A DNA stretch of 32,000 nt from the NCBI RefSeq assembly GCF_900289195.1, contig NZ_OMOH01000002.1, positions 1,206 to 33,205 on the forward strand, given 5' to 3'. The position numbers were made by a program, and so were the translations under genes. Positions 5,711 to 32,000 of this stretch are shown in pieces. The stretch is from Propionibacterium ruminifibrarum. Lineage in GTDB: Bacteria; Actinomycetota; Actinomycetes; Propionibacteriales; Propionibacteriaceae. The notes beneath the pieces are model-generated. The model saw only the letters and a program-made list of their open reading frames with translations. It was not told the origin of the DNA and did not search any database. Numbering within the stretch: position 1 is the stretch's first letter; every line of letters starts with the position of its first letter.

Positions 5711-5783
5711 CTCCCCCGACTGGACTCGAACCAGTAACCCTCTGATTAACAGTCAGATGCTCTGCCAATTGAGCTACAGGGGA
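5711..5783 (-). tRNA. tRNA-Asn (anticodon GTT)
   Basis: I folded the cloverleaf by hand. Acceptor TCCCCTG/CGGGGGA; D arm GCTC-AATTGGCA-GAGC; anticodon arm TCTGA-CTGTTAA-TCAGA; T arm ACTGG-TTCGAGT-CCAGT; discriminator G. It is 73 nt and CCA is not encoded. Confidence 0.95.
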
Positions 5784-7308: not shown

Positions 7309-9186
7309 TCACTCCAGGAAGCCGATGCTTTCCTGGGCGAGCTGCTTGCGCTCGACCTCAAGAGCCAGCAGCGTGGTGAACATCTCGGCGTGGTCGGCCT
7401 GGTCGGTCACCGGGTTGGTGCGCTGCAGACGTGACTTCAGGTCGTCGATGCGCCGCATCACCGTGAGCATGCGAAGCTTCGCGGTGTAGGCGGCGGCGTA
7501 GCGCTCGGTCGGTTCCTCGCTGAGCAGCGGTTCCACGAGCAGGGCCACCTCGAGCTGGCGGGCCGTGGGGTCGGCCGTGGTGGTCTGGAGCTGCTCCGCC
7601 CAGCCCTGCGGCTGGTAGCCGGTCTCGGCGATGGCCTCGAAGACGGCGCGGAACGCCGGGTGGGTGAAGTCGTCGGCACTCACACCGTTCCAGGCGGTGT
7701 CGAACAGGGTCGGCCGCTGCAGCATGAGCTTCAGGGTGCCGCGCTCGACGTCCAGCCGATGGTCCCGCGAGTCCGGCCAGGGCAGGCCGACCCGCTGGTG
7801 CGACGGGGCCGGTCCCGGCTCGACGATGTGGTCCGGCGCCCGTTCGGGTTCGGGGCGGCGGGGCCTGCGGCGGCGTTCGTCGCTGATGATTCTGCGCACC
7901 TCGCCCGGGTCCATGCCGACCAGGCGGGCCAGTTCGCGGACGTACTCGTTGACCAGCGAGGAATCCCGGATCGAGGCGATCATGCCGGAGGCGGCGCGCA
8001 CCGCCTCGACCCGGCCGTCGGCCCGGTCGAGATCGTAGCCCGCGACCGTGTGGCCCATGACGTACAGGTACAGGGGTTCACGGCGGCCGATGAGTTCGCG
8101 GACGGCGGCGTCGCCCTGGGCCATGCGAAGATCGCAGGGATCCAGTCCGCTCGGCTCGACTGCCACGTAGGTCTGTGAGGTGAAGGAACGGTCGAGCTTG
8201 TAGACCTTCAGCGCAGCGGCCTGGCCGGCCCGGTCGCCGTCGAAGGTGAAGACGATCTCGCCGCGGGTCGCATCCGAACTGCCCATGAGCCGCTGCAGCA
8301 GGCGGGCGTGGTCCTCCCCGAACGCCGTGCCGCAGACGGCCACCGCCGTGTCGACGCCGGCCAGGTGAGCGCTCATGACGTCGGTGTAGCCCTCCATGAC
8401 GACGGCCTGCTGCTTCTTGCCGATGTTCTGGCGTGCCAGGTCGAGCCCGTACAGGACGTGCGACTTCTTGTAGACGGGTGTCTCGGGCGTGTTGATGTAC
8501 TTGGCGGGCAGGCGGTCATCGTCGTAGAGGCGACGGGCGCCGAAACCGAGTACGGACCGTCCCGAGTCCTTGATGGGCCAGATGACCCGGCCCTGGAAGT
8601 AGTCCCAGCCGCCGCGCTCTCGGATGAGGCCGGCGCGGACGAGTTCGTCGTCGCTGAAACCCGCCTTGTTCAGGTGGCGGTGCAGGGCCCGCCCGTCCTT
8701 GGGCGCGTAGCCGACCCCGAAGCGCTCGGCCGCGGCCCGGTCGAAGCCGCGGCCGTCGAGCATGCGCCGGGCCTCGATGGCCTCGGGGCCGGCCAGCTGG
8801 TTGGCGTAGAAGTCGGCGGCGAGCTTGTTGGCCTCCATGATGCGCACGCGCTGCCCGGGAGGCATCGAGGGGCGGCCGTCGTCGACGATGCGCAGCTGCA
8901 CCCCGGTCCTGTCCGCCAGGGCCTGGACGGCCTCGGTGAAGGAGAGATTGTCGATCTTCTGCATGAAGGTGATGACGTCGCCGCCCTCGCCGCACCCGAA
9001 GCAGTAGAACAGGCCACGGGCCGGCGTCACCTGGAAGCTCGGGGTCTTCTCGTCGTGGAAGGGGCACAGGCCCTTGAGCGAGCCCCCGCCGGCGTTGCGC
9101 AACGTCACATAGGATCCGACGACGTCATCGATCCGGACGCGCTCCCTGACCAGGGCGATGTCCTCGTCGTTGATGCGTCCGGCCAT
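7309..9186 (-). CDS. dnaG: DNA primase
   Basis: 625 aa, with the zinc finger CPFHDEKTPSFQVTPARGLFYCFGCGEGGDVITF and TOPRIM motifs (VVMEGYTDVM, FDGDRAGQAAA). Confidence 0.95.
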   Translation of the reverse strand: MAGRINDEDIALVRERVRIDDVVGSYVTLRNAGGGSLKGLCPFHDEKTPSFQVTPARGLFYCFGCGEGGDVITFMQKIDNLSFTEAVQALADRTGVQLRIVDDGRPSMPPGQRVRIMEANKLAADFYANQLAGPEAIEARRMLDGRGFDRAAAERFGVGYAPKDGRALHRHLNKAGFSDDELVRAGLIRERGGWDYFQGRVIWPIKDSGRSVLGFGARRLYDDDRLPAKYINTPETPVYKKSHVLYGLDLARQNIGKKQQAVVMEGYTDVMSAHLAGVDTAVAVCGTAFGEDHARLLQRLMGSSDATRGEIVFTFDGDRAGQAAALKVYKLDRSFTSQTYVAVEPSGLDPCDLRMAQGDAAVRELIGRREPLYLYVMGHTVAGYDLDRADGRVEAVRAASGMIASIRDSSLVNEYVRELARLVGMDPGEVRRIISDERRRRPRRPEPERAPDHIVEPGPAPSHQRVGLPWPDSRDHRLDVERGTLKLMLQRPTLFDTAWNGVSADDFTHPAFRAVFEAIAETGYQPQGWAEQLQTTTADPTARQLEVALLVEPLLSEEPTERYAAAYTAKLRMLTVMRRIDDLKSRLQRTNPVTDQADHAEMFTTLLALEVERKQLAQESIGFLE

Positions 9187-9738: not shown

Positions 9739-10365
9739 TCAGTCCAGGTCCAGCAGATGGTTCATGCGGTCGCGTTTGGTCCGCAGGTAGGTGATGTTCT
9801 CGGGCCGGGCGCGCACCTGGTCCGGTTCTAGGCCTGCCACCTCGACGCCGGCGGCGCGCAGGCCGACGGCCTTGAGCGGGTTGTTGGTGAGAAGGCGGAT
9901 GCGTGTCATGCCGATCTCCCGCAGGATCAGGGCGGCGGACGCGTAGCTGCGGGCCTCGACGGGCAGCCCGAGCTTCTCGTTGGCCGCCACGGTGTCGAGA
10001 CCCTGCTCCTGCAGGTGGTAGGCGCGGAGTTTGTTGAACAGGCCGATGCCCCGCCCCTCCTGGTCACGCAGGTAGACGATGGCGCCCCCGGACTCGGCGA
10101 CCATGGCCATGGCGGCGTGGAGCTGTTCGCCGCAGTCGCAGCGGTGCGAGCCGAGTACGTCACCGGTGAGGCATTCCGAGTGCACCCGCACGAGCGGGAT
10201 GGTCTCCTCGGGTACCGGGACGACCAGGCTCATGTGCTCGATACCGTCGATGCGCCAGCACTGGGCGGTGAAGAGCCCCCACTCGGTCGGCAGGGCGACG
10301 GGGTCGGTGCGTTCCACGTCCGGCGCGGACCCGCCGGGGGCCCGCCCTGCAGGATGGACGCTCAC
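9739..10365 (-). CDS. ribA: GTP cyclohydrolase II (monofunctional, no DHBP-synthase domain)
   Basis: 208 aa aligning end to end with E. coli-type RibA: LPTEWGLF..., VRVHSECLTGDVLGSHRCDCGEQL, QEGRGIGLFNKLRAYHLQEQGLDTV, RLLTNNP. The GTG start overlaps the ribE stop (GTGA). Confidence 0.9.
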   Translation of the reverse strand: MSVHPAGRAPGGSAPDVERTDPVALPTEWGLFTAQCWRIDGIEHMSLVVPVPEETIPLVRVHSECLTGDVLGSHRCDCGEQLHAAMAMVAESGGAIVYLRDQEGRGIGLFNKLRAYHLQEQGLDTVAANEKLGLPVEARSYASAALILREIGMTRIRLLTNNPLKAVGLRAAGVEVAGLEPDQVRARPENITYLRTKRDRMNHLLDLD

Positions 10366-10997
10366 TCGCGGGCCTCGGCCGGGGCGAAGGCCATGAACCG
10401 GCTCAGGTACTTGGCGAGGACATCGGTCTCGATGTTCACCATGTCACCCGCGGCGAGGCGGCCGAGGCGGGTTCCGGTGAGTGTGGCGGGGATGAGGCCG
10501 ACCTCGAACCAGCTGTCCACGGCGTCGGGGTCGCTGACCGCGGTGACGGTGAGCGAGACGCCGTCGACGGCGATGGCGCCCTTCTCGGCGATCTGCGGAG
10601 CCAGCCGGTTCGGCACGCCGACCCGCAGCGTCGTCCAGCTGCCCTGCTCGGTGATCGACAGGACCCGCCCGGCGCCGTCCACGTGTCCCTGCACGATGTG
10701 GCCGTCGAGGCGTCCGTCGGCGGGCACGCAGCGTTCGAGGTTGACGACGTCCCCCGGCGCGACCTGCCCGAGGCTGGTGCGGTCCATGGTCTCGCCCATG
10801 AGTTCGGCGACGAACACGCCCTGGCGCTCGGGATCGGCGACCGATGTCAGGCAGACGCCGTTGACGGCCAGCGATCCCCCGACGGGGAGGTCGTCTGCGA
10901 CGCCGTGGGTGTCGACGACCAGACGTGTGATGCCCGGGGCCGCTCCGGGCAGGAGTTCGACGACGGTTCCCAGCCCATCAACGATTCCGGTGAACAT
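10362..10997 (-). CDS. ribE: riboflavin synthase (alpha chain)
   Basis: MFTGIVDGLGTVVEL... and the duplicated lumazine-binding repeats (GSLAVNGVCLTS / GAIAVDGVSLTV). The start overlaps the ribD 3' end by 20 nt. Confidence 0.9.
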   Translation of the reverse strand: MFTGIVDGLGTVVELLPGAAPGITRLVVDTHGVADDLPVGGSLAVNGVCLTSVADPERQGVFVAELMGETMDRTSLGQVAPGDVVNLERCVPADGRLDGHIVQGHVDGAGRVLSITEQGSWTTLRVGVPNRLAPQIAEKGAIAVDGVSLTVTAVSDPDAVDSWFEVGLIPATLTGTRLGRLAAGDMVNIETDVLAKYLSRFMAFAPAEARE

Positions 10998-12087
10998 GCT
11001 TCTCCTCACGGGTAGGTGTCTTCTCAGGCCGGCGCGGGGACGGCCGGAGGATGATCTCGAGGTTGTCGTCGAGGGTGCGAACGGGTTCATCCAGTCGCCA
11101 TTGGATGGCTCGGCCGAGCGTGTCGACGTTCAGCGCCCCGGTCGAGCGGATGCCGGGTCCGAGCATGAGCGGTGCCTGCTGGACGACGAGGGTGTCCACC
11201 AGGTCGGCGTCGATGAACGCACCGGTGATGGTGGGGCCGCCCTCGACGAGGACGTGCCCGACGCCGGCGGCCGCCAGTTCGGCGAGTACCTGCACCGGAT
11301 CGTGGCTGGCGATCTGCAGCCACGGGCCATCGCGCAGCGCCGCGCCGTCGGGCACCGGACGCAGCCCCATCGCGACGTGCAGGGGCTGGTTGCCGAGCGG
11401 TTCCCCGTTCCTGTCACGGGCGGTGAGCCTGGGGTCGTCGGCGAGGACCGTTCCGGTGCCGACGAGGACGGCGTCCGCCCGGGCGCGGAGGGCGTGCGCC
11501 GACCGGCGCGCCCGGTCGCCGGTGATCCACTGGCTCGTGCCATCGGCTGCCGCGACGCACCCGTCGAGGCTCTGCGCGATCTTGGCCGTCACGTATGGCC
11601 GGCCCTGCCTGGCGGCGAGCAGCCAGCGGTCGTTCAGTTCACGGGCCTGCTCCGCCATGAGCCCCTCGACGGTCTCCACCCCGGCGGCACGAAGCCTGGC
11701 TGCGCCTCCCGAGGCGATGGTGTGCGGGTCGGCCGTGGCGTAGACGACCCGGGAGATCCCGGCGTCGATGAGCGCCCGCGAACAGGGACCGGTGCGGCCG
11801 GTGTGGTCACAGGGTTCGAGGGTGACGACCATGGTGGCGCCGCGCACGTCCTGTCCGCTCTCGCTGGCCGCGCGCAGGGCGTCGACCTCGGCGTGAGGGG
11901 TGCCCGCGCCCCTGTGATGGCCGACGGCGATGATGCGGTTCTGATCAACGATGGTGGCCCCGACGAGCGGGTTCGCGCCCCGGGCGCCCTGCCTGGCGAC
12001 GTCGAGCGCCACGGCCATGGCCTGCGCCTCGAGTGGCGTGGTGGGCGCGTGCGGCTGTCCGTCGCCCCGACCCGACTGTGAACTCAT
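10978..12087 (-). CDS. ribD: bifunctional diaminohydroxyphosphoribosylaminopyrimidine deaminase / 5-amino-6-(5-phosphoribosylamino)uracil reductase
   Basis: The deaminase zinc motifs are HAEVDAL and TLEPCDHTGRTGPC. The reductase domain follows (YVTAKIAQSLDG...TGDRARR...LVGTGTVLADDPRLT...VLVEGGPT). The start ATG 12087 is preceded by GGAGGGGG. Confidence 0.9.
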   Translation of the reverse strand: MSSQSGRGDGQPHAPTTPLEAQAMAVALDVARQGARGANPLVGATIVDQNRIIAVGHHRGAGTPHAEVDALRAASESGQDVRGATMVVTLEPCDHTGRTGPCSRALIDAGISRVVYATADPHTIASGGAARLRAAGVETVEGLMAEQARELNDRWLLAARQGRPYVTAKIAQSLDGCVAAADGTSQWITGDRARRSAHALRARADAVLVGTGTVLADDPRLTARDRNGEPLGNQPLHVAMGLRPVPDGAALRDGPWLQIASHDPVQVLAELAAAGVGHVLVEGGPTITGAFIDADLVDTLVVQQAPLMLGPGIRSTGALNVDTLGRAIQWRLDEPVRTLDDNLEIILRPSPRRPEKTPTREEKHVHRNR

Positions 12088-12207
12088 CGGCCCCCTCCGG
12101 CATCCTCGCCCGGGGCCCATGAGTGAACGGTCCGGGATGGCCGGCCGGTTCCACGGTCGGCCCCGTCCGGCGATCGTGCGCCGCGACGGGTGGCCGTCCA
12201 CTCATGC

Positions 12208-12325
12208 CATGCGCCTCCCATCCAGACTGTGACTGTCGGTTCTGGAATTCCACCAGATCAGCCGGCCGTTGGCCGGGTCGCGGACTCTCACCGCCGGTAC
12301 GGATTTTCACCGTCCCCGGGACATG
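12208..12325 (-). promoter_or_regulatory. FMN riboswitch (RFN element) in the ribD leader
   Basis: The minus strand reads CCGGGGACGGTGAAAATCCGTACCGGCGGTGAGAGTCCGCGACCCGGCCAACGGCCGGCTGATCTGGTGGAATTCCAGAACCGACAGTCACAGTCTGGATGGGAGG. This is nearly collinear with the B. subtilis ribD RFN consensus (GGGG.GGGTGAAATTCC..ACCGGCGGT...GCCCGCGA....GGTG.GATTCC.GAGCCGACAGT..AGTCTGGATGGGAG). Confidence 0.9.
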
Positions 12326-12398
12326 ACAGGGTCAGTATGCCACGCCCGGGTCCATCCCGGTGGTTCTTTCACCCGGGTTGTACCGGCCGGGCGGCGGT

Positions 12399-17834: not shown

Positions 17835-18179
17835 GATGCCTCCTCACGCAACAGAACTCGAAGGGGTTGGGTGTTGACCCGTGTCAGAGCCGGCGGTGTT
17901 CGTAACCCGCGGGCTCCGCCGCGGTCGGTACGGCGGCAACGTCGCCACCGGACATGAGCTGAGCCTAATGGATCAACCCCGGCCAGAGCCATGGGCGGCT
18001 GCGGGTCGTCGCCTGCCCCGCCGCGCCGAAACCCCCTTGCCGGGGCACGAACGGCGGGCACCGAGGGGGCTGGGGCTCAGACAGCCGATGCCGTGCCGAA
18101 GGAGGAACCGATCAGGCAGGGTTTGTCGCCTGCCCGGTGGCGTGCGACGGCCGGCAGGGTACGGCCCCGACCGGCCTCC

Positions 18180-19928
18180 TCACTGTTCCTCGCGGTACAT
18201 CTGCATGCGCAGCTCAAGGCTCGTCTGGTCGGCGTCGAGCAGACGCAGCATGGCGGTGAGTCCGGCCGGGCTGTACTTGCCCGTCTGGTTCACCCTCAGC
18301 AGGGTCTCGCGCTGGGCCTTCACGGCCCGCAGGGCGTGTTCGCCGGCCACGCCGGCCAGGTGCCTGTCCTGGGAGCTCAGCCGGCCCGTACGGGCCCTGC
18401 CGAGCAGGTTCTCCGCCCGAGTCACGAGCGCGGACTCGTCGTTCTCGTCGGCGTCGAGGATCGTCGCGCCCCGGCCAGCACCGGCCTCGCGCAGTTCGGC
18501 GGGCGGGGGCACGCGGGCCGCCGCCTCGTGCATGATCTCCCGCAGCTCGGCCCTCTCCTGGGCCGATGCCCGCGCGGCCTGCGCAGGACGCACGAGCCGA
18601 ACGAAGGCGCCCAGCGAACCGCCCTGCGCGACCAGTGAGATCGAGGCGACGAAGAAGGCGATGAGGATCATCACCGGCCGCCCGGGCAGATCAGTCGGCA
18701 GGGTCTGGGCCGCGGCGACGGTCACGGCACCGCGCATGCCGGCCCAGACGATGGTCGCCCCCTCGCGGGCGCCTAGACGTTCCTGGGTGTAGTAGTCGAT
18801 GTCTGCCAGCGCCCGTTCCATGCGCAGGGCGAGCCACGCCGCCCTGCGCCGCTGCCGCCGCGTGACCGGGCGTTCGGGCCGGTCACGGTGGTGGGCGCCC
18901 ATCAGGGTCCTGACGGTCGACGTGCGCCGGGCACGCCGGGCCGCGTGGCGGCGGGCCACGACGAGCATGAGGGCGACGACGCAGGCCCGGGCGGCCAGGA
19001 CCACCGCGATGACGATCACCGACAGCACGAGAATCCTCCCCAGTGGCGCCTGCTCGTCATCGGCCAGTGCGGCCGGCAGCTGGAGCCCCATGAGCAGGAA
19101 GACGCTCGATTCGAGCACGAGCGAGATCTCGGCCCAGGTCGTCCGGTTCGCCGACCGCTGGGATGGTGTCAGCAGCGAGGTCGAGCGGTATCCCTCGACG
19201 AGTCCGCAGACGACAGCCGCGATGAGGCCTGATCCCCCGATGTGCTCGACCAGGAGAAAGGCCGCGTACGGCGTGGCCAGTGACATGAGCATGTCGGTCG
19301 TCACCGACGAGCTGCGGGCCCGGAGCCAGAGCACCTCGTTGCCGACGATCAGGCCGACCACGACGGCGGATATCACTGCCCAGAAGAACGAGCCCACCAC
19401 CTGCCCGGCCGTGACCTGCCCCGTCGTGGCCACGAGGGCGGAGGACATCACGACGAGCGCCGAGGCGTCATTGACCAGGCCCTCGCCCTCGAGAACAGAG
19501 ATGACGCGCTGGCTGACGCCGGCCTTGCGGGTGATCGACGTGGCCACGGCATCGGTCGGGCTGACGATGGCTCCCAGGGCGATGGCCGCCGCCAGCCCCA
19601 GGCCGGGCACGATCGCGTGCAGAACCAGCCCGACGGCGACTGCCGTAGCGATGACGAGCAGCACCGACAATGCCGCGATGGGACCGAGATTGCGCCGGAA
19701 CTCCAGCAGCGGCATCCTCACCGCCGAGGCGTACAGGAATCCCGGCAGGATCAGTTGAAGGATGATGTCGGGGTCGGCGTGCAGAGCCGGCACGGCGGGG
19801 ATCGTCGCAACCCCCGTGCCCAGAACGAGCAGCACCACGGGGGCGACCAGCCCGGCCCACTCGGCCAGCCGGTCGCTCAGCGCGATGACGAACAGTGCGG
19901 CGACACCGATGAGCAGGACGACATCCAC
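18180..19928 (-). CDS. Na+/H+ antiporter (CPA1/NhaP-type) with a C-terminal cytoplasmic domain
   Basis: 582 aa with 10-12 predicted TM helices. Motifs: LGAIVSPTDAVA, VLEGEGLVNDASALV, WAGMRGAVTVAAA. Confidence 0.88.
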   Translation of the reverse strand: MDVVLLIGVAALFVIALSDRLAEWAGLVAPVVLLVLGTGVATIPAVPALHADPDIILQLILPGFLYASAVRMPLLEFRRNLGPIAALSVLLVIATAVAVGLVLHAIVPGLGLAAAIALGAIVSPTDAVATSITRKAGVSQRVISVLEGEGLVNDASALVVMSSALVATTGQVTAGQVVGSFFWAVISAVVVGLIVGNEVLWLRARSSSVTTDMLMSLATPYAAFLLVEHIGGSGLIAAVVCGLVEGYRSTSLLTPSQRSANRTTWAEISLVLESSVFLLMGLQLPAALADDEQAPLGRILVLSVIVIAVVLAARACVVALMLVVARRHAARRARRTSTVRTLMGAHHRDRPERPVTRRQRRRAAWLALRMERALADIDYYTQERLGAREGATIVWAGMRGAVTVAAAQTLPTDLPGRPVMILIAFFVASISLVAQGGSLGAFVRLVRPAQAARASAQERAELREIMHEAAARVPPPAELREAGAGRGATILDADENDESALVTRAENLLGRARTGRLSSQDRHLAGVAGEHALRAVKAQRETLLRVNQTGKYSPAGLTAMLRLLDADQTSLELRMQMYREEQ

Positions 19929-28110: not shown

Positions 28111-29067
28111 ATGTCGATCTTCGCCCTCGCGTTCATGCAGCGGGCACTCGTCGCAGCGCTGCTCTCCGGCATCATGAGCCCGGCCGTCGGCACGTACATC
28201 GTCCAACGGCGCCTGTCACTGCTCGGTGACGGTCTCGGCCACGTCGCCATCGCCGGCGTCGGCCTGGCACTGATCACCGGCTGGGCCCCCACCCCCGTGG
28301 CCATCGTCGTCTGCGTCATCGGCGCCGTGGCGATCGAGCTGGCTCGTCAGAGCGGCCGGGCCCCAGCCGATGTGGGCCTGGCGATCCTGTTCTACGGCGG
28401 GCTCGCCGCCGGCGTCCTCATGGCCGGGATCTCGGGCAAGGGCTCCGGTGTGCTCTCGCAGTACCTCTTCGGTTCGCTGACGACGGTGAGCGCCTCGGAT
28501 GTCATCGTCGTGGCTGCCATGACACTCGTCATCGTGACGCTCTGCCTCGGTCTGGCGCCTCAGCTCTTCGCCGTCTGCGCCGACGAGGAGTACGCCCGGA
28601 GCCAGGGGCTACCGGTGCGAGCGCTGGAACTGTGCATCGTCGTCATGGCGTCGGTGGCCGTCGCAGTGTCGATGCGCACCGTCGGGCTCCTCCTGGTGAG
28701 TGCCATGATGGTCGTTCCGGTCGCGGCCGCGAACAACCTGGTGACCGGCTTCAGACGCTCATTGACGGTGGCTATGGGCATCGGTCTGGCGGTCAGCGCG
28801 GTCGGCGTCATCGGCTCCTTCTACTGGAACACGGCGCCCGGCGCGACGATCGTCGTGAGCGCCATCGTCGTCTTCATGGTCAGCACGCCGATCGGGACGC
28901 TGTTGCGTCGCAGGAGGTCGCTGACGAGCGAGGATGACCCTATAGTGAGAGCTGCAGGTGGGCACGTCCGCACCGAAGGCACCACCCCCGCCACCGACCG
29001 CGGTTCCTCGGAGCAGCTGCCCGACTTCCCGATATCGCAGATGGAGAGAAAGGCCGATGAGCGCTGA
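28111..29067 (+). CDS. znuB: zinc/metal ABC transporter permease
   Basis: MSIFALAFMQRALVAALLSGIMSPAVGTYIVQRRLSLLGDGLGHVAIAGV... is the typical ZnuB/MntB family N-terminus, with 8-9 TM helices. It carries about 45 extra hydrophilic C-terminal residues. Confidence 0.9.
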   Translation: MSIFALAFMQRALVAALLSGIMSPAVGTYIVQRRLSLLGDGLGHVAIAGVGLALITGWAPTPVAIVVCVIGAVAIELARQSGRAPADVGLAILFYGGLAAGVLMAGISGKGSGVLSQYLFGSLTTVSASDVIVVAAMTLVIVTLCLGLAPQLFAVCADEEYARSQGLPVRALELCIVVMASVAVAVSMRTVGLLLVSAMMVVPVAAANNLVTGFRRSLTVAMGIGLAVSAVGVIGSFYWNTAPGATIVVSAIVVFMVSTPIGTLLRRRRSLTSEDDPIVRAAGGHVRTEGTTPATDRGSSEQLPDFPISQMERKADER

Positions 29068-29497
29068 GAAGTCCACGTCGCAGGACACCAAGACGCCCCC
29101 GCGCAACACGCGTCAGCGCCGGCTCATCAAGCAGACCCTCGGCGAAGGACGGGATTTCAGGACCGCCCAGCAGCTGCACGCCGAGCTGGTCATGGCAGGC
29201 GAGCACGCCTCCCTGGCCACCGTCTACCGCGTCCTGAACTCGCTGGCCGACAACGGCGAGGCCGACACATGGCGCACGCCGGAGGGCGAGATGGCCTACC
29301 GGCGCTGCCTGACGATCCGCCACCACCACCACCTGATCTGCCGCACCTGCGGGCGCACCGTCGAGATCAGCGGCGGCCCGGCCGAGAAATGGGCCGAGGC
29401 GATCGCCGCCGAGCACGGTTTCACCAGCCCCGAGCACCATGTCGAGATCTTCGGCACCTGCCCCGACTGCACCGCCCAGGATCCCGAGAACACCTGA
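29057..29497 (+). CDS. zur: Fur-family zinc uptake regulator
   Basis: 146 aa: NTRQRRLIKQTL..., SLATVYRVLNSLADNG, HHHHLICRTCGRTVEI, FGTCPDC (two CxxC pairs). The start overlaps the znuB 3' end by 11 nt. Confidence 0.85.
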   Translation: MSAEKSTSQDTKTPPRNTRQRRLIKQTLGEGRDFRTAQQLHAELVMAGEHASLATVYRVLNSLADNGEADTWRTPEGEMAYRRCLTIRHHHHLICRTCGRTVEISGGPAEKWAEAIAAEHGFTSPEHHVEIFGTCPDCTAQDPENT

Positions 29498-29511
29498 CCC
29501 GCTGACCGCCC

Positions 29512-29543
29512 CCGCACGGGGCAGGGAGCCCCTCGCGGTGCGG
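29512..29543 (+). terminator. compound stem-loop terminator candidate after zur
   Basis: CCGCAC-GGGGC-AGGGA-GCCCC-(TCGCG)-GTGCGG, starting 15 nt after the zur stop. Confidence 0.5.
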
Positions 29544-29630
29544 ATCACCCCATGACCGAGCGCCTTCGCCGGGCCCGAGCGTTCCCGGCCCGGCGGGCAG
29601 GCGATATGATTTGCACAACAGAACACATCA

Positions 29631-29715
29631 CCTTTGCGAGGGAAGCCGGTGAGAAACCGGCACTGACGCGCAGCCGTGAGCCAGCTCAACGCTGGCGAGT
29701 CGGAATGCTCGCTCT
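29631..29715 (+). promoter_or_regulatory. compact cobalamin (B12) riboswitch-like aptamer
   Basis: GCGAG-GGAAGCCGGTGAGAAACCGGCACTGACGCGCAGCCGTGAGCC-AGCTCAACGCTGG-CGAGTCGGAATG-CTCGC. The core matches the E. coli btuB leader (AGGGAATCCAGTGCGAATCTGGAGCTGACGCGCAGCGGTAAGG). A B12-box-like AGTCGGAATGCTCGC has a 3' end (CTCGC) that pairs with the 5' GCGAG, covarying relative to the usual CCTGCC/GGCAGG. A -10-like TATGAT lies at 29605-29610. Confidence 0.65.
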
Positions 29716-29795
29716 GGTGATCAAACCTTCTACCGCTGTCGCGAATGCACCGGTGACCGTGATGTCACCGTGCTCTGCAGCGAAAGGATGACATC

Positions 29796-30695
29796 ATGAG
29801 CGCCACGAGCTGGCACATTGAACAGCCCCGTGGGGGCGAATCGGGTTCGACACCCCTCCTTCATCTTCTGCCCTCCACCCAGATGACCCCCCGCCTGGAC
29901 ACCTACCTCCACGTATGGCTCGCCACACGCGCCGGCTCCGTCGCCGACAAGACCCTCCGCACCGATCAGGACCTGCTCCGCCTCATCCCGCAGTCCTACC
30001 TGAGTCAGGACCCCCGCGCCCTCACCCAGCCGGCCGTGAGCAGGCTGCTCGCGCGGTTCCGCTCGCGGGGACTCAGTGAACTCTCGGTTCGTCGTTACCG
30101 CGCCAGCCTGTCGTCGTTCTTCAGCTGGCTGCGGGCTCAGGGAGTCATCGACGACTCCCCCATGCCCCAGCAGCCGACGCGCCAGCCGGTCAAGCAGGCC
30201 ACCTCCGCGATGCCGTTCACGGCGCCCGAGTTGCACGCCGCGTTCCGGCTGTGGCAGGCAAGGGATCGCCGGCTGGCACTGGTCATGCTCGTCCTGGCCC
30301 ACACCGGCCTGCGCTGGGCCGAGGCTCGCGCCCTGCTCGTCTCGGACGTGCACCTGCGCGAGGGCTGTCTGGTCGTCCGCCGGTCCATGCCCGAGGGCGT
30401 GAGCACTCGGGAGTTCGGTCCCGAGCTGATCCGCCGCGTGCCGCTGTCGAAGTGCGCGACTCGTGCGCTGGCCGAGCTCGTTGCCGGCTCCCGCCCGGAC
30501 CAGCTGGCCATGACCACCGACCGCGGCTGCCAGCTGCACCGCACCTCGGTGCTTCGCGCGCTCGACTGGCCGCACACCGGGCAGGGCCGCCGCCTCGTCG
30601 ACCTGCGCCACACCGCCGCACAGCTGTGGCTCGATTGCGGCCACTCCCCCGCTCAGGTCCGCACCTGGATGGGGCACAGCCTCATCACCGGGTAA
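29796..30695 (+). CDS. tyrosine-recombinase/integrase-like protein, C-terminally truncated (no catalytic Tyr); possibly a pseudogene
   Basis: There is a SAM-like N-domain (LDTYLHVWLATRAGSVADKTLRTDQDLLRL; SVRRYRASLSSFFSWLRAQGVI). Box I is LAHTGLRWAEARAL. Box II is VDLRHTAAQLWLDCGHSPAQVRTWMGHSLITG-stop. The usual HxLRH first His is Val. The ORF ends 5 codons after GHS, and no Tyr codon exists in any + frame before the convergent MFS gene. An alternative start is ATG 29883 (MTPRLD), since the first 29 codons have weaker GC3. Confidence 0.7.
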   Translation: MSATSWHIEQPRGGESGSTPLLHLLPSTQMTPRLDTYLHVWLATRAGSVADKTLRTDQDLLRLIPQSYLSQDPRALTQPAVSRLLARFRSRGLSELSVRRYRASLSSFFSWLRAQGVIDDSPMPQQPTRQPVKQATSAMPFTAPELHAAFRLWQARDRRLALVMLVLAHTGLRWAEARALLVSDVHLREGCLVVRRSMPEGVSTREFGPELIRRVPLSKCATRALAELVAGSRPDQLAMTTDRGCQLHRTSVLRALDWPHTGQGRRLVDLRHTAAQLWLDCGHSPAQVRTWMGHSLITG

Positions 30696-30740
30696 TCGCC
30701 TCGGCACGGGTGCCGGCGCGCCGAGCGGGTCGGCGCCCGG

Positions 30741-32000
30741 TCACTCGATCATGTCCTGGCTCTTGAGTTCGGGCAGGAACAGGGCGGAGACGGCCGCGAT
30801 GACGAAGCTCACCGCGAAGACGGTGAAGACGAGGGCGTACCCGCCGCGCAGGATGAGCGGCACGACGAGCGGGGCGATGATACCGGCCACCCGCCCCACG
30901 GCAGAGGCCGCGCCGGTGCCCGCCCCGCGCAGGGCAGTCGGGTAGATCTCGGGTCCGATCGCGTACAACGCCCCCCACGCCCCCAGGTTGAAGAAGCTGA
31001 GCGCACAACCGGCGATCATGATGCCCGCCGCACCGGATTGCAGGCCGAACACCATTGCCGAGACCCCCGAGGCCAACAGGAAGCTCGCCAGCGTCGGACG
31101 CCTGCCCCAGCGCTCGATCAGCCAGGAGGCGACCGCATAGCCAGGAAGCTGGGCCAGGGTGATGACCAGCGTGTACCCCATGGAGTGCACCAGCGAGTGC
31201 CCCTGACGGTAGAGCAGGGTCGGCATCCAGGTGAAGGCACCGTAGTAACTCAGGTTGACGAAGAACCAGACCAGCCACAGGGCGGTCGTCGAACGGCGGT
31301 GCGCCGGGGCGAACAGGGAGCGGGTGCCCCTCCCCTTCGGCGACGCGCTCAGCGGCGTGGCGGAGACCGCCGTCGCCTCGTCGACCTCGGGTTCGACACC
31401 GGCCGATCGTTCGAAGACACGGACGGAGGCCTCCGCCTGCTCAAGACGCCCGGCCGACTCGAGGAAACGGACCGATTCGGGTAGGCCGTGCCGGACGACG
31501 AGTGCGTAGACGGTCGGGACGATGCCCACCAGCAGGGCCCACCGCCAGCCGGGCCACCCGCCAATGGTCCGGGGAACGAGGAAGTACCCGAGCAGGGCGG
31601 CGAGGATCCACCCCAGGGCCCAGAAGCTCTCCAGCCAGACGACCATGCGCCCTCTGATGCGTTGCGGTGCGAACTCGCTGACGAGCGTCGAGGCGACGGG
31701 CAGCTCGGCCCCCAACCCGAGGCCCACGATCAGCCGCAGGCAGATGAGCATGGCCACACCCGTGGAGAAGGCGGCCGCGCCAGTGGCGATGCCGTAGACG
31801 AGCAGTGTCAGGGCGAAGACGTTCCGTCGGCCCAGCCGGTCGGCGAGCAGGCCGCCGACCGATGCGCCGATCATCATGCCGACGAAACCGATCGAGCCGA
31901 TCCAGCTGAGCTGCCCGTTCGAGAGCCCCCACTGGGCCGCCAGTGCCGTCATGACGTAGCTGATGAGGCCAACGTCCATGGCATCGAGCGCCCAGCCGAC
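30741..32000 (-). CDS. MFS transporter (sugar-porter/metabolite:H+ symporter-like), with the 5' end outside the window
   Basis: 12-TM-type sequence with the MFS signature GGLLADRLGRRNVF and the PESVRFL motif. The frame stays open to the window edge upstream of MDVGLISYV. Confidence 0.85.
   Translation of the reverse strand, partial: VGWALDAMDVGLISYVMTALAAQWGLSNGQLSWIGSIGFVGMMIGASVGGLLADRLGRRNVFALTLLVYGIATGAAAFSTGVAMLICLRLIVGLGLGAELPVASTLVSEFAPQRIRGRMVVWLESFWALGWILAALLGYFLVPRTIGGWPGWRWALLVGIVPTVYALVVRHGLPESVRFLESAGRLEQAEASVRVFERSAGVEPEVDEATAVSATPLSASPKGRGTRSLFAPAHRRSTTALWLVWFFVNLSYYGAFTWMPTLLYRQGHSLVHSMGYTLVITLAQLPGYAVASWLIERWGRRPTLASFLLASGVSAMVFGLQSGAAGIMIAGCALSFFNLGAWGALYAIGPEIYPTALRGAGTGAASAVGRVAGIIAPLVVPLILRGGYALVFTVFAVSFVIAAVSALFLPELKSQDMIE

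Follow-up and report, generated by a model that had tools for sequence, protein, structure and literature searches.

Introduction

Cobalamin riboswitches of clan CL00101 (RF00174 and RF01482, with the Escherichia coli btuB platform) share the core GGGAAGCCGGUG..AA.CCGGC.CUGACGCGCA.CCGUGAG ... AGUCGG, and to our knowledge their targets are nearly all genes for vitamin B12 transport, B12 synthesis or B12-independent isozymes. In Listeria, the antisense RNA AspocR runs convergent on pocR under the control of a B12 riboswitch, and in Enterococcus and Listeria such a riboswitch controls EutX/Rli55, an RNA that sequesters EutV. The present study concerns a leader with the same core in Propionibacterium ruminifibrarum, found in a stretch of 32,000 nucleotides (nt) (NCBI RefSeq assembly GCF_900289195.1, contig NZ_OMOH01000002.1, positions 1,206 to 33,205 of the forward strand), which is referred to as the window and is numbered from its first letter. 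The leader precedes a gene for a tyrosine-recombinase-fold protein that ends ahead of the nucleophilic tyrosine, and the gene lies at the 3' boundary of a microcompartment locus for propanediol (pdu) and ethanolamine (eut) utilization. With moderate confidence in the explanation as a whole, we propose that B12 shuts off an exapted, non-catalytic recombinase-fold protein, which would link B12 status to the pdu/eut locus.

The leader resembles the CL00101 riboswitches in its covariation-backed helices, in a terminal P13-like hairpin and in the sequestration of the Shine-Dalgarno (SD) sequence. It differs from the E. coli btuB-type platforms in that the SD lies outside P13 and would be reached by a relay of two competing helices, and from the usual targets of the clan in that the regulated gene is not one for B12 transport, biosynthesis or an isozyme. 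As with AspocR and EutX/Rli55, a cobalamin riboswitch stands at a B12-dependent microcompartment locus and is proposed here to act on a regulator, not on an enzyme; as with AspocR, the riboswitch unit is convergent with a gene of the pdu locus. Unlike these non-coding RNAs, which depend on transcription termination, the present riboswitch is predicted to gate the translation of a protein-coding gene, and the recombinase-derived protein is neither an AraC/PocR-type nor an ANTAR regulator.

A parallel for the protein is found in TnsF of the Tn6022-like Tn7 transposons, in which an inactivated tyrosine-recombinase domain selects the DNA target in a sequence-specific manner (Faure et al. 2023, PMC10293859). 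Both proteins have the tyrosine-recombinase fold minus the Tyr pocket, and a non-catalytic role is proposed here for the window protein as well. TnsF carries N-terminal zinc fingers and tandem core-binding-like domains and lies inside a transposon, whereas the window protein is chromosomal, syntenic, encoded as a single gene, riboswitch-controlled and unrelated to Tn7. Judged from the sequences, the riboswitch would belong to a known class, its target would form a new one, and the protein would represent a new exaptation of a tyrosine recombinase. A link between a cobalamin riboswitch and an integrase or recombinase gene was not found in the literature, where the coverage of subscription journals was thin.

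Results

The riboswitch aptamer and its promoter

The aptamer occupies positions 29625 to 29724 of the + strand and is compact, with a short P6 hairpin. Its helices are formed by 29628-29632 with 29716-29720 (outer P1), 29636-29640 with 29708-29712, 29645-29649 with 29657-29661, and 29674-29685 with 29691-29703. An initial annotation, made from the letters of the window alone, had placed a cobalamin riboswitch at 29636-29712; this span lies inside the element, and the outer P1 helix extends beyond it on both sides. The individual features listed there, namely a TATGAT hexamer, the closing helix GCGAG/CTCGC, the hairpin CGGTGAC/GTCACCG, an SD-like AAAGGA, the ATG at 29796 and the open reading frame (ORF) that follows, are all present at the positions given there.

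The match of the region 29603-29731 to RF00174 reaches 31.3 bits, compared with a gathering score of 31.5, with an expect value (E) of 2.4e-6 in a search of 421 nt. Because of this small shortfall, the aptamer is missing from a gathering-level Rfam scan of the whole window, which returned an FMN riboswitch and a tRNA only and no cobalamin riboswitch. Unlike the RF00174 model, which has a 62-nt P6 extension, the window has about 10 nt at that place. Since the match is borderline when taken alone, the assignment was tested by comparison with related sequences. Orthologous leaders pass the thresholds of the known families: that of P. cyclohexanicum (L005) scores 50.8 bits against RF01482 (gathering score 50), that of a Propionicimonas locus (L007) scores 38.7 bits against RF00174, and a third (L003) reaches 31.5 bits, equal to the gathering score of RF00174. 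Three others stay below the RF01482 gathering score of 50, with 49.2 (L008), 38.6 (L009) and 33.8 bits (L001).

When 12 leaders are aligned, 95% of the cells belonging to the 25 aptamer pairs are paired, compared with 28-48% in slid controls. Twelve of these pairs have changed on both sides, and the observed values are reached in 0 of 500 shuffles. The same helices are predicted independently by RNAalifold from a 13-leader alignment, with 12 compensatory pairs, and the window aptamer scores 109.3 bits against R1, a covariance model built from that alignment. The comparative evidence indicates that the element at 29625-29724 is a real cobalamin riboswitch aptamer and not a chance match, and the call made in the initial annotation holds. 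Cobalamin binding by the RNA is predicted, and the short P6 is similar to both RF01482-type and class-II aptamers.

The hexamer TATGAT at 29605-29610 (+ strand), read from the sequence, is a -10-like element of the actinobacterial TAnnnT type and is probably the promoter of the riboswitch module itself. A TAnnnT hexamer stands approximately 14-20 nt 5' of P1 in 11 sequence-distinct leaders. Scans of 29450-30800 with the sigma-70 consensus and with a consensus terminator gave neither a full -35/-10 match nor a U-tract terminator. Such empty results are expected in a high-GC actinobacterium, for which reason promoter and terminator were judged from the conserved TAnnnT hexamer and from hairpin folds.

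The expression platform

The 3' end of the aptamer is separated from the start codon by 72 nt, and three structures, each overlapping the next, can be drawn in this region. The first is a P13-like hairpin at 29733-29755 (+ strand), in which 29734-29738 pair with 29751-29755. Its loop carries the element CUGUCGCG..GCA (CCGCUGUCGCG..GCA in RNA letters), which is invariant or nearly so in the 13 leaders and which, in the leader of P. cyclohexanicum, aligns to the terminal hairpin of the RF01482 model. The stem never varies and so offers no covariation, for which reason the P13-like assignment is tentative. Inspection by eye revealed no base pairs between the core of the aptamer and the invariant CCGCUGUCGCG element.

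The 3' strand of the P13-like hairpin overlaps the 5' arm of the second structure, the hairpin CGGTGAC/GTCACCG at 29751-29770 (+ strand), which was read from the sequence and is proposed to pair an anti-anti-SD with an anti-SD. The other clade has the same hairpin made from a different sequence, GGGAGGCGG/CCGUCGUCC, and part of it is retained by RNAalifold, with four sequences changed on both sides at one pair.

The third structure is a putative sequestering helix within 29758-29798 (+ strand), in which 29758-29769 (CGUGAUGUCACC), that is, the 3' arm and loop of the preceding hairpin, pair with 29786-29798 (GGAUGACAUCAUG). It covers the GGA of the SD-like AAAGGA (29783-29788, + strand), the spacer and the AUG (29796-29798), and is proposed to be the OFF state. 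The duplex has an energy of −16.5 kcal/mol, compared with −6.5 ± 2.1 kcal/mol in shuffled sequences (z-score −4.7), and its z-score is below −2.3 in 10 of the 13 leaders, the lowest value being −5.9. Between clades the helix shows a compensatory change, GAUGUC:GACAUC vs GUCGUC:GACGAC, and the sequestering pair of the other clade, CGUCGUC:GACGACG, follows the same logic. A covarying helix that buries the SD and AUG, together with the lack of a U-tract in the scanned region, points to translational control, and on this sequence evidence the expression platform is assigned to the translational type. The direction of control is probably OFF, with B12 holding P13, freeing the anti-SD and blocking initiation, as this matches the usual behaviour of cobalamin riboswitches.

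The protein downstream of the riboswitch

The sole gene downstream of the riboswitch is an ORF of 299 amino acids (aa) at 29796-30695 (+ strand), whose product consists of a core-binding SAM-like domain and a catalytic-domain remnant. The protein matches PF00589 with 33.3 bits (cut-off 27.1) over profile positions 19-158 of 172, PF02899 with 23.3 bits (cut-off 22.3), and the integrase family phrog_1 (5e-33). The scores against the NCBIfam equivalogs XerC, XerD and XerA are 37-46 bits and do not reach the cut-offs of 220-335. The AlphaFold2 model of the 299-aa protein has a predicted local distance difference test (pLDDT) value of 83, and its top Foldseek matches are the Tn1549 integrase (6en2, E 2e-12), XerA, lambda Int, XerD and Cre, with a probability of 1.00; residues 1-20 of the model have a pLDDT below 50. 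The ORF had been described as an integrase-fold protein and not a B12 gene, and the domain matches agree with this.

The closest full-length relatives are phage or integrative and conjugative element (ICE) integrases of approximately 360 aa with PF26003 and PF00589 domains, for example from Cutibacterium avidum, Acidipropionibacterium jensenii, Nocardioides and Cellulomonas, which are 41-47% identical to the window protein over residues ~30-295. The motifs TGLRWxEA, DLRHTAA and WMGH are common to both groups. Unlike the window protein, the full-length integrases keep an additional N-terminal domain of approximately 60 aa (PF26003) and the segment ESIATTNRYLH...; where the window protein ends with WMGHSLITG*, they run on with ...ESIATTNRYLHFLGT, which holds the tyrosine. 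The missing nucleophile noted in the initial annotation is therefore a property of the protein, as is the replacement of the HxxR histidine (His I) by Val (VDLRH, compared with HDLRH in the full-length relatives). His I is Asn in one clade (P0006-9) and His in others, and the second histidine (His III) is Pro in a third clade (P0010-26). The window protein retains Arg I (R173, in TGLRW) and Arg II (R271), and both arginines are invariant in the 20 short-clade sequences aligned.

The short proteins all stop 5-10 residues past WMG(H/P)(S/T), and 20 sequences, at 45-89% identity, share the same truncation point. That the tyrosine is hidden by a sequencing error or a frameshift, for instance near 30690 as had been considered, is excluded because the same stop position recurs in other species and in independent assemblies; an identical protein is encoded on 24 independent contigs, and no alternative frame supplies the Tyr segment. 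On these grounds the protein is considered to be recombination-dead while having the recombinase fold.

The ratio of nonsynonymous to synonymous substitution rates (dN/dS) is 0.15 against P. australiense, 0.27 against P. acidifaciens and 0.26-0.45 in the shorter forms. Values of 0.15-0.45 across the clades indicate purifying selection on the amino-acid sequence. Codons 1-29 have a GC content at third positions (GC3) of 0.69, compared with 0.85-0.93 for the remainder; the weaker GC3 of these codons had been noticed correctly, whereas the suggestion that they are a leftover or untranslated leader is at odds with the conservation of the start codon and of an N-terminal MSxxxW among the relatives. 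The low-GC3 segment 29814-29885 (codons 7-30) contains a 14-residue insertion specific to the clade of the window, P. australiense and P. acidifaciens.

The pairing of riboswitch and gene

The aptamer stands directly 5' of every Tyr-less gene examined (window, L001, L003, L005/L012, L007, L008, L009, L039, L092-L103, L104 and L107). The Tyr-less forms span 170-299 aa and occur in Propionibacterium, Propionicimonas and Micropruina. The nearest relatives are those of P. australiense (89% identical, 299 aa), an uncultured Propionibacterium (81%) and P. acidifaciens (78%), and more distant short forms are found in P. cyclohexanicum (55%) and in Propionicimonas and Micropruina (~49%). When metagenome contigs were scanned with a pattern for the leader only, 12 loci were obtained, and an integrase-like ORF is the next gene in 12 of 12.

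Negative controls were taken from a profile scan of contigs with the short-clade alignment; among the matches listed, most are full-length integrases, and the known Propionibacterium orthologues are not among them. R1 was then searched against the window and 80 genome-scan loci from the same matches (78 distinct loci holding relatives, 1.39 Mb). Besides the window, only P. cyclohexanicum and a Propionicimonas locus with the 170-aa form were matched. The riboswitch is found in 0 of the 77 loci with full-length, Tyr-containing relatives among the matches listed, and the nearest non-matches, L013 and L032, are full-length integrases with the tyrosine. No related locus was found in which this leader precedes a classical B12 gene or any other gene. 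The pair is kept across several genera and in at least four upstream contexts, and the sequence comparison indicates that the riboswitch and the Tyr-less ORF are a conserved two-part module of Propionibacteriaceae.

These results bear directly on the first of two readings offered in the initial annotation, in which a mobile element or deletion replaced an original B12-regulated gene, so that the truncated integrase is decaying junk in an insertion scar. The lost catalytic residues, the truncated C-terminus and the low GC3 of codons 1-29 would fit such a pseudogene, and an integrase next to a microcompartment locus is commonly taken as a sign of horizontal transfer (PMC8217296). Nevertheless, the short forms of different genera, at 45-89% identity, share both the start codon and the point of truncation, dN/dS is well under 1, riboswitch and ORF remain paired in at least four upstream contexts, the leader scan leads to an integrase-like ORF in every case, and no orthologous locus has this leader before another gene. 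We reject the scar as highly improbable. The second reading, in which B12 controls a domesticated integrase-like protein that is recombination-dead, has as much support as sequence evidence can give.

Several lineages have lost or replaced the core-binding domain. The metagenome loci include such forms of 170-257 aa; over all loci, the lengths are 190 aa (L095, L097 and L099), 170 aa (L039), 186 aa (L098), 257 aa (L094) and 223 aa (L100). The domain-deleted lineages retain the MSxxxW start, the catalytic-domain remnant and the riboswitch, and the Tyr-less catalytic remnant is therefore the universally conserved part of the protein. In P. freudenreichii (GCA_030235225.1; L107 17980-18833), R1 scores 88.2 bits at 18732-18833 on the minus strand. 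This aptamer precedes a 224-aa ORF (17980-18654) between pduP and zur for which no Pfam match is recorded. The ORF is a strongly diverged family member and has not kept Arg II either (DLPATAA).

That the most conserved part is the catalytic-domain remnant, not the core-binding domain, would also suit a modulator of recombination, in which the remnant binds an active tyrosine recombinase (Xer, or a prophage or ICE integrase) or its core sites and blocks or redirects it under B12 scarcity. The structures of Cre and lambda Int show that the C-terminal segment is donated to the neighbouring protomer. The segment missing here is the part that tyrosine recombinases donate in this manner, and the closest full-length relatives, at 41-47% identity, are integrases of the same bacterial group. 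On the other side, there is no apparent physiological reason for B12 control of recombination, no partner recombinase gene is conserved beside the module, and no association with mobile elements is seen: the gene is chromosomal and syntenic, leader and protein are both absent from the viral contigs, and three family members have no PADLOC family at E <= 0.001. A role as a recombinase modulator is accordingly judged improbable, although less so than the scar. The lack of viral-contig matches also led to the rejection of a phage-borne origin of the module, and that of PADLOC matches to the rejection of a role in a defence system.

The pdu/eut microcompartment locus

The gene that follows on the opposite strand, at 30741-32000, encodes a major facilitator superfamily (MFS) transporter (PF00083, PF07690) and is cut by the end of the window. 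Its stop codon is at 30741-30743, and the convergent orientation described in the initial annotation is correct. The 45-nt spacer between the convergent stop codons contains a GC-rich hairpin at 30703-30742 (−35.8 kcal/mol, z-score −2.5), and the equivalent spacer in L039 has a z-score of −5.3. The hairpin likely terminates transcription in both directions, as an actinobacterial-type terminator that lacks a U-tract; the consensus terminator scan missed it because it has no T-run.

The MFS gene is the last gene of a co-oriented pdu+eut super-operon that runs beyond the window, the layout of which was read from L010 and L104/L106, longer contigs of the same genome and of P. australiense. On the strand opposite to the integrase-like gene, the block starts with pocR, pduQ, (pduV, pduU), pduA, B, C, D, E, G, H and shell genes; it continues with EutJ, PduS, EutN, PduO, PduP, eutA, eutB, eutC and shell genes; and it ends with an aldehyde dehydrogenase, shell genes, EutQ, EutH and MFS, after which comes the 3' end of the integrase-like gene. 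From end to end, the block lies between recO and zur. P. freudenreichii has the same layout minus eut. Convergence with pdu or eut genes is found in the window genome, P. australiense, P. acidifaciens, P. freudenreichii, two Propionicimonas loci, L009, L094, L097 and L098, the converging gene being that of PduP in P. acidifaciens, the two Propionicimonas loci, L009, L094, L097 and L098. Microcompartment genes are found in no control integrase locus among the matches listed, and the leader of the integrase-like gene is the only cobalamin riboswitch in two overlapping stretches of ~21 kb (~31 kb in all) of the P. australiense pdu+eut locus. The position of the module at the 3' end of a pdu/eut locus that depends on adenosylcobalamin (AdoCbl) provides a plausible physiological logic for B12 control.

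The same geometry raises the main rival to a regulatory protein, namely an antisense or transcriptional-interference device of the AspocR type, whose output would be the riboswitch-gated transcript running toward the convergent pdu/eut operon. At low B12, translation of the ORF would shield the transcript from Rho, and read-through or collision would lower expression of the operon, the protein being secondary or acting alongside. In most contexts the unit has kept its convergence with the 3' end of pdu or eut, and the protein evolves fast and tolerates domain deletions, as this device would allow. Against it stand the dN/dS of 0.15-0.45 in all clades, which shows selection on amino acids, a platform that sequesters the SD and AUG and has no terminator, the strong GC-rich hairpins that separate the convergent genes, and the retention of the module without an opposing microcompartment operon in P. 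cyclohexanicum and Micropruina. Overall, we consider this device rather unlikely.

The upstream neighbour differs by lineage and is zur, nrdDG, glgX with pemK, or a tRNA gene. In the window, a Fur-family regulator gene, probably zur, is located at 29057-29497 (+ strand; PF01475 FUR, 86.4 bits) and is outside the regulated unit, 5' of the riboswitch promoter. Its start (29057) overlaps the end of an ABC-3 (znuB-like) ORF with a stop codon at 29065-29067, so that translational coupling is probable for zur, which closes the operon znuA-C-B-zur and has the ZnuA, ABC and ABC-3 genes upstream. The -10 element of the module lies 3' of GC-rich hairpins at about 29510-29594. In P. cyclohexanicum (L005/L012), the order is zur, module and recO, and the module stands where relatives have the pdu block. 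In a Micropruina species (L008), the module is located among three tRNA genes beside a DDE transposase gene of an insertion sequence element; another Micropruina species has PduG (P0294). In the Propionicimonas locus L007 (82-2075), nrdD and nrdG, which encode the B12-independent anaerobic ribonucleotide reductase and its activase, lie directly upstream of the riboswitch on the same strand. This adjacency is probably coincidental, as the riboswitch is downstream of nrdDG, and an interpretation of the locus as a glycyl-radical microcompartment (GRM) was wrong, the upstream genes being nrdD and nrdG.

Binding sites for the protein were sought in the repeats upstream of eutA and in the pduU-pduA promoters. 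For the pduU-pduA promoter regions, the alignment of three species was too poor to yield a motif. In P. australiense (L104), the region 7996-8430 between pduP and eutA, which is preceded by a perfect 15-bp terminator hairpin at 7910-7942, belongs to the 600 nt upstream of eutA and contains several repeats that include GGTTCG, in both orientations, at 8222, 8247, 8284, 8367 and 8407. These repeats could be an operator array for a eut regulator; they are absent from the promoter of the integrase-like gene itself.

Elsewhere in the window, the FMN riboswitch at 12206-12327 (− strand; RF00050, 94.4 bits) is an ordinary leader of a riboflavin operon, upstream of ribD (10981-12201) and a GTP cyclohydrolase II gene (9742-10365), and the tRNA gene at 5711-5783 (− strand, 70.2 bits) is ordinary and unrelated to the module.

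Discussion

In the proposed mechanism, transcription of the riboswitch would start from a TAnnnT promoter of its own. Bound B12 would hold the P13-like hairpin, probably through the usual L5-L13 contact, and the hairpin would take a strand from the hairpin at 29751-29770; the freed anti-SD would then pair with the SD and AUG, and translation would be OFF. When B12 is lacking, the hairpin at 29751-29770 would form and leave the ribosome site free, which corresponds to the ON state. The protein would be vertically inherited and exapted from an actinobacterial phage or ICE integrase, having kept the recombinase fold, Arg I and, in most lineages, Arg II, and having lost the N-terminal arm-type domain (PF26003), the helix of the Tyr nucleophile and, depending on the lineage, one or both histidines. 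It would be made only under B12 scarcity and would regulate without catalysis, in the simplest case by binding DNA as a repressor or modulator, and would hold the B12-dependent microcompartment pathway off until the cofactor is available. In Listeria and Enterococcus, RNAs under B12 riboswitches serve the same logic, in which the pathway runs only if the cofactor is present. The role at low B12 is suggested by the location of the module at the 3' boundary of the AdoCbl-dependent pdu operon in most lineages.

The mechanism would make the Tyr-less recombinase a new kind of regulator that acts as an inverter: without B12, it would be made and would lower expression of the pdu/eut locus, and with B12, it would be absent and the locus permitted. 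We put this specific form forward tentatively, as a possibility with less than even weight. The AraC-family activator PocR regulates the same pathway and has its gene in the same pdu loci; it differs in that its fold is unrelated, it is encoded at the 5' end of the locus, it has no riboswitch, and it is present without the module in L108.

A number of observations weigh against the proposed B12-controlled regulator. With regard to the RNA, the RF00174 score of the window is 0.2 bits under the gathering score, no covariation between L5 and the P13-like loop was seen by eye, and the ensembles of whole leaders are bistable, with a probability of being unpaired of 0.22-0.72 over the region from SD to AUG, so that thermodynamic folding of whole leaders alone cannot tell ON from OFF. 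With regard to the protein, the deletion of the core-binding domain in several lineages weakens the picture of a sequence-specific DNA clamp, and P. freudenreichii additionally lacks Arg II. No candidate binding site assignable to the protein was found in the eutA upstream repeats or the pduU-pduA promoters. With regard to the locus, the gene meets the operon convergently at the 3' end and not at the promoter, and the canonical pdu activator PocR is present in 3 of the 3 pdu loci examined. A pdu locus of Propionimicrobium and a eut locus of Tessaracoccus have no module within 10 kb, and P. cyclohexanicum and Micropruina have the module without microcompartment genes in the flanks (6 kb per side; 10 kb for L012). 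DNA binding and the regulatory target of the protein are predictions from sequence, and confidence in DNA binding is moderate because of the core-binding domain deletions and the lack of an identified binding site.

Conclusions

A dedicated riboswitch paired with a dead integrase homologue across a family would add a new class of riboswitch-controlled gene and would give a clear bacterial case of the repurposing of a tyrosine recombinase. If the proposal is true, no riboswitch before this one was known to have a recombinase-derived protein under its control. Such genes are now annotated as "site-specific integrase" or "hypothetical protein", which can mislead the calling of mobile elements and horizontal transfer at microcompartment loci.

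Propionibacteria are industrial producers of B12 and propionate and are members of the gut and oral flora. For P. freudenreichii, three B12 riboswitches have been listed, those of cbiL, cbiB and mutA (PMC5644110), and the aptamer found here would be a fourth. A study of pdu in this species reported no annotated regulator adjoining the main pdu locus (PMC8149966). The inverter, if it exists, would supply the B12 input that has been missing from the control of microcompartments in propionibacteria, and the module is a candidate for how these bacteria may tie the expression of their propanediol and ethanolamine microcompartments to the supply of the cofactor.

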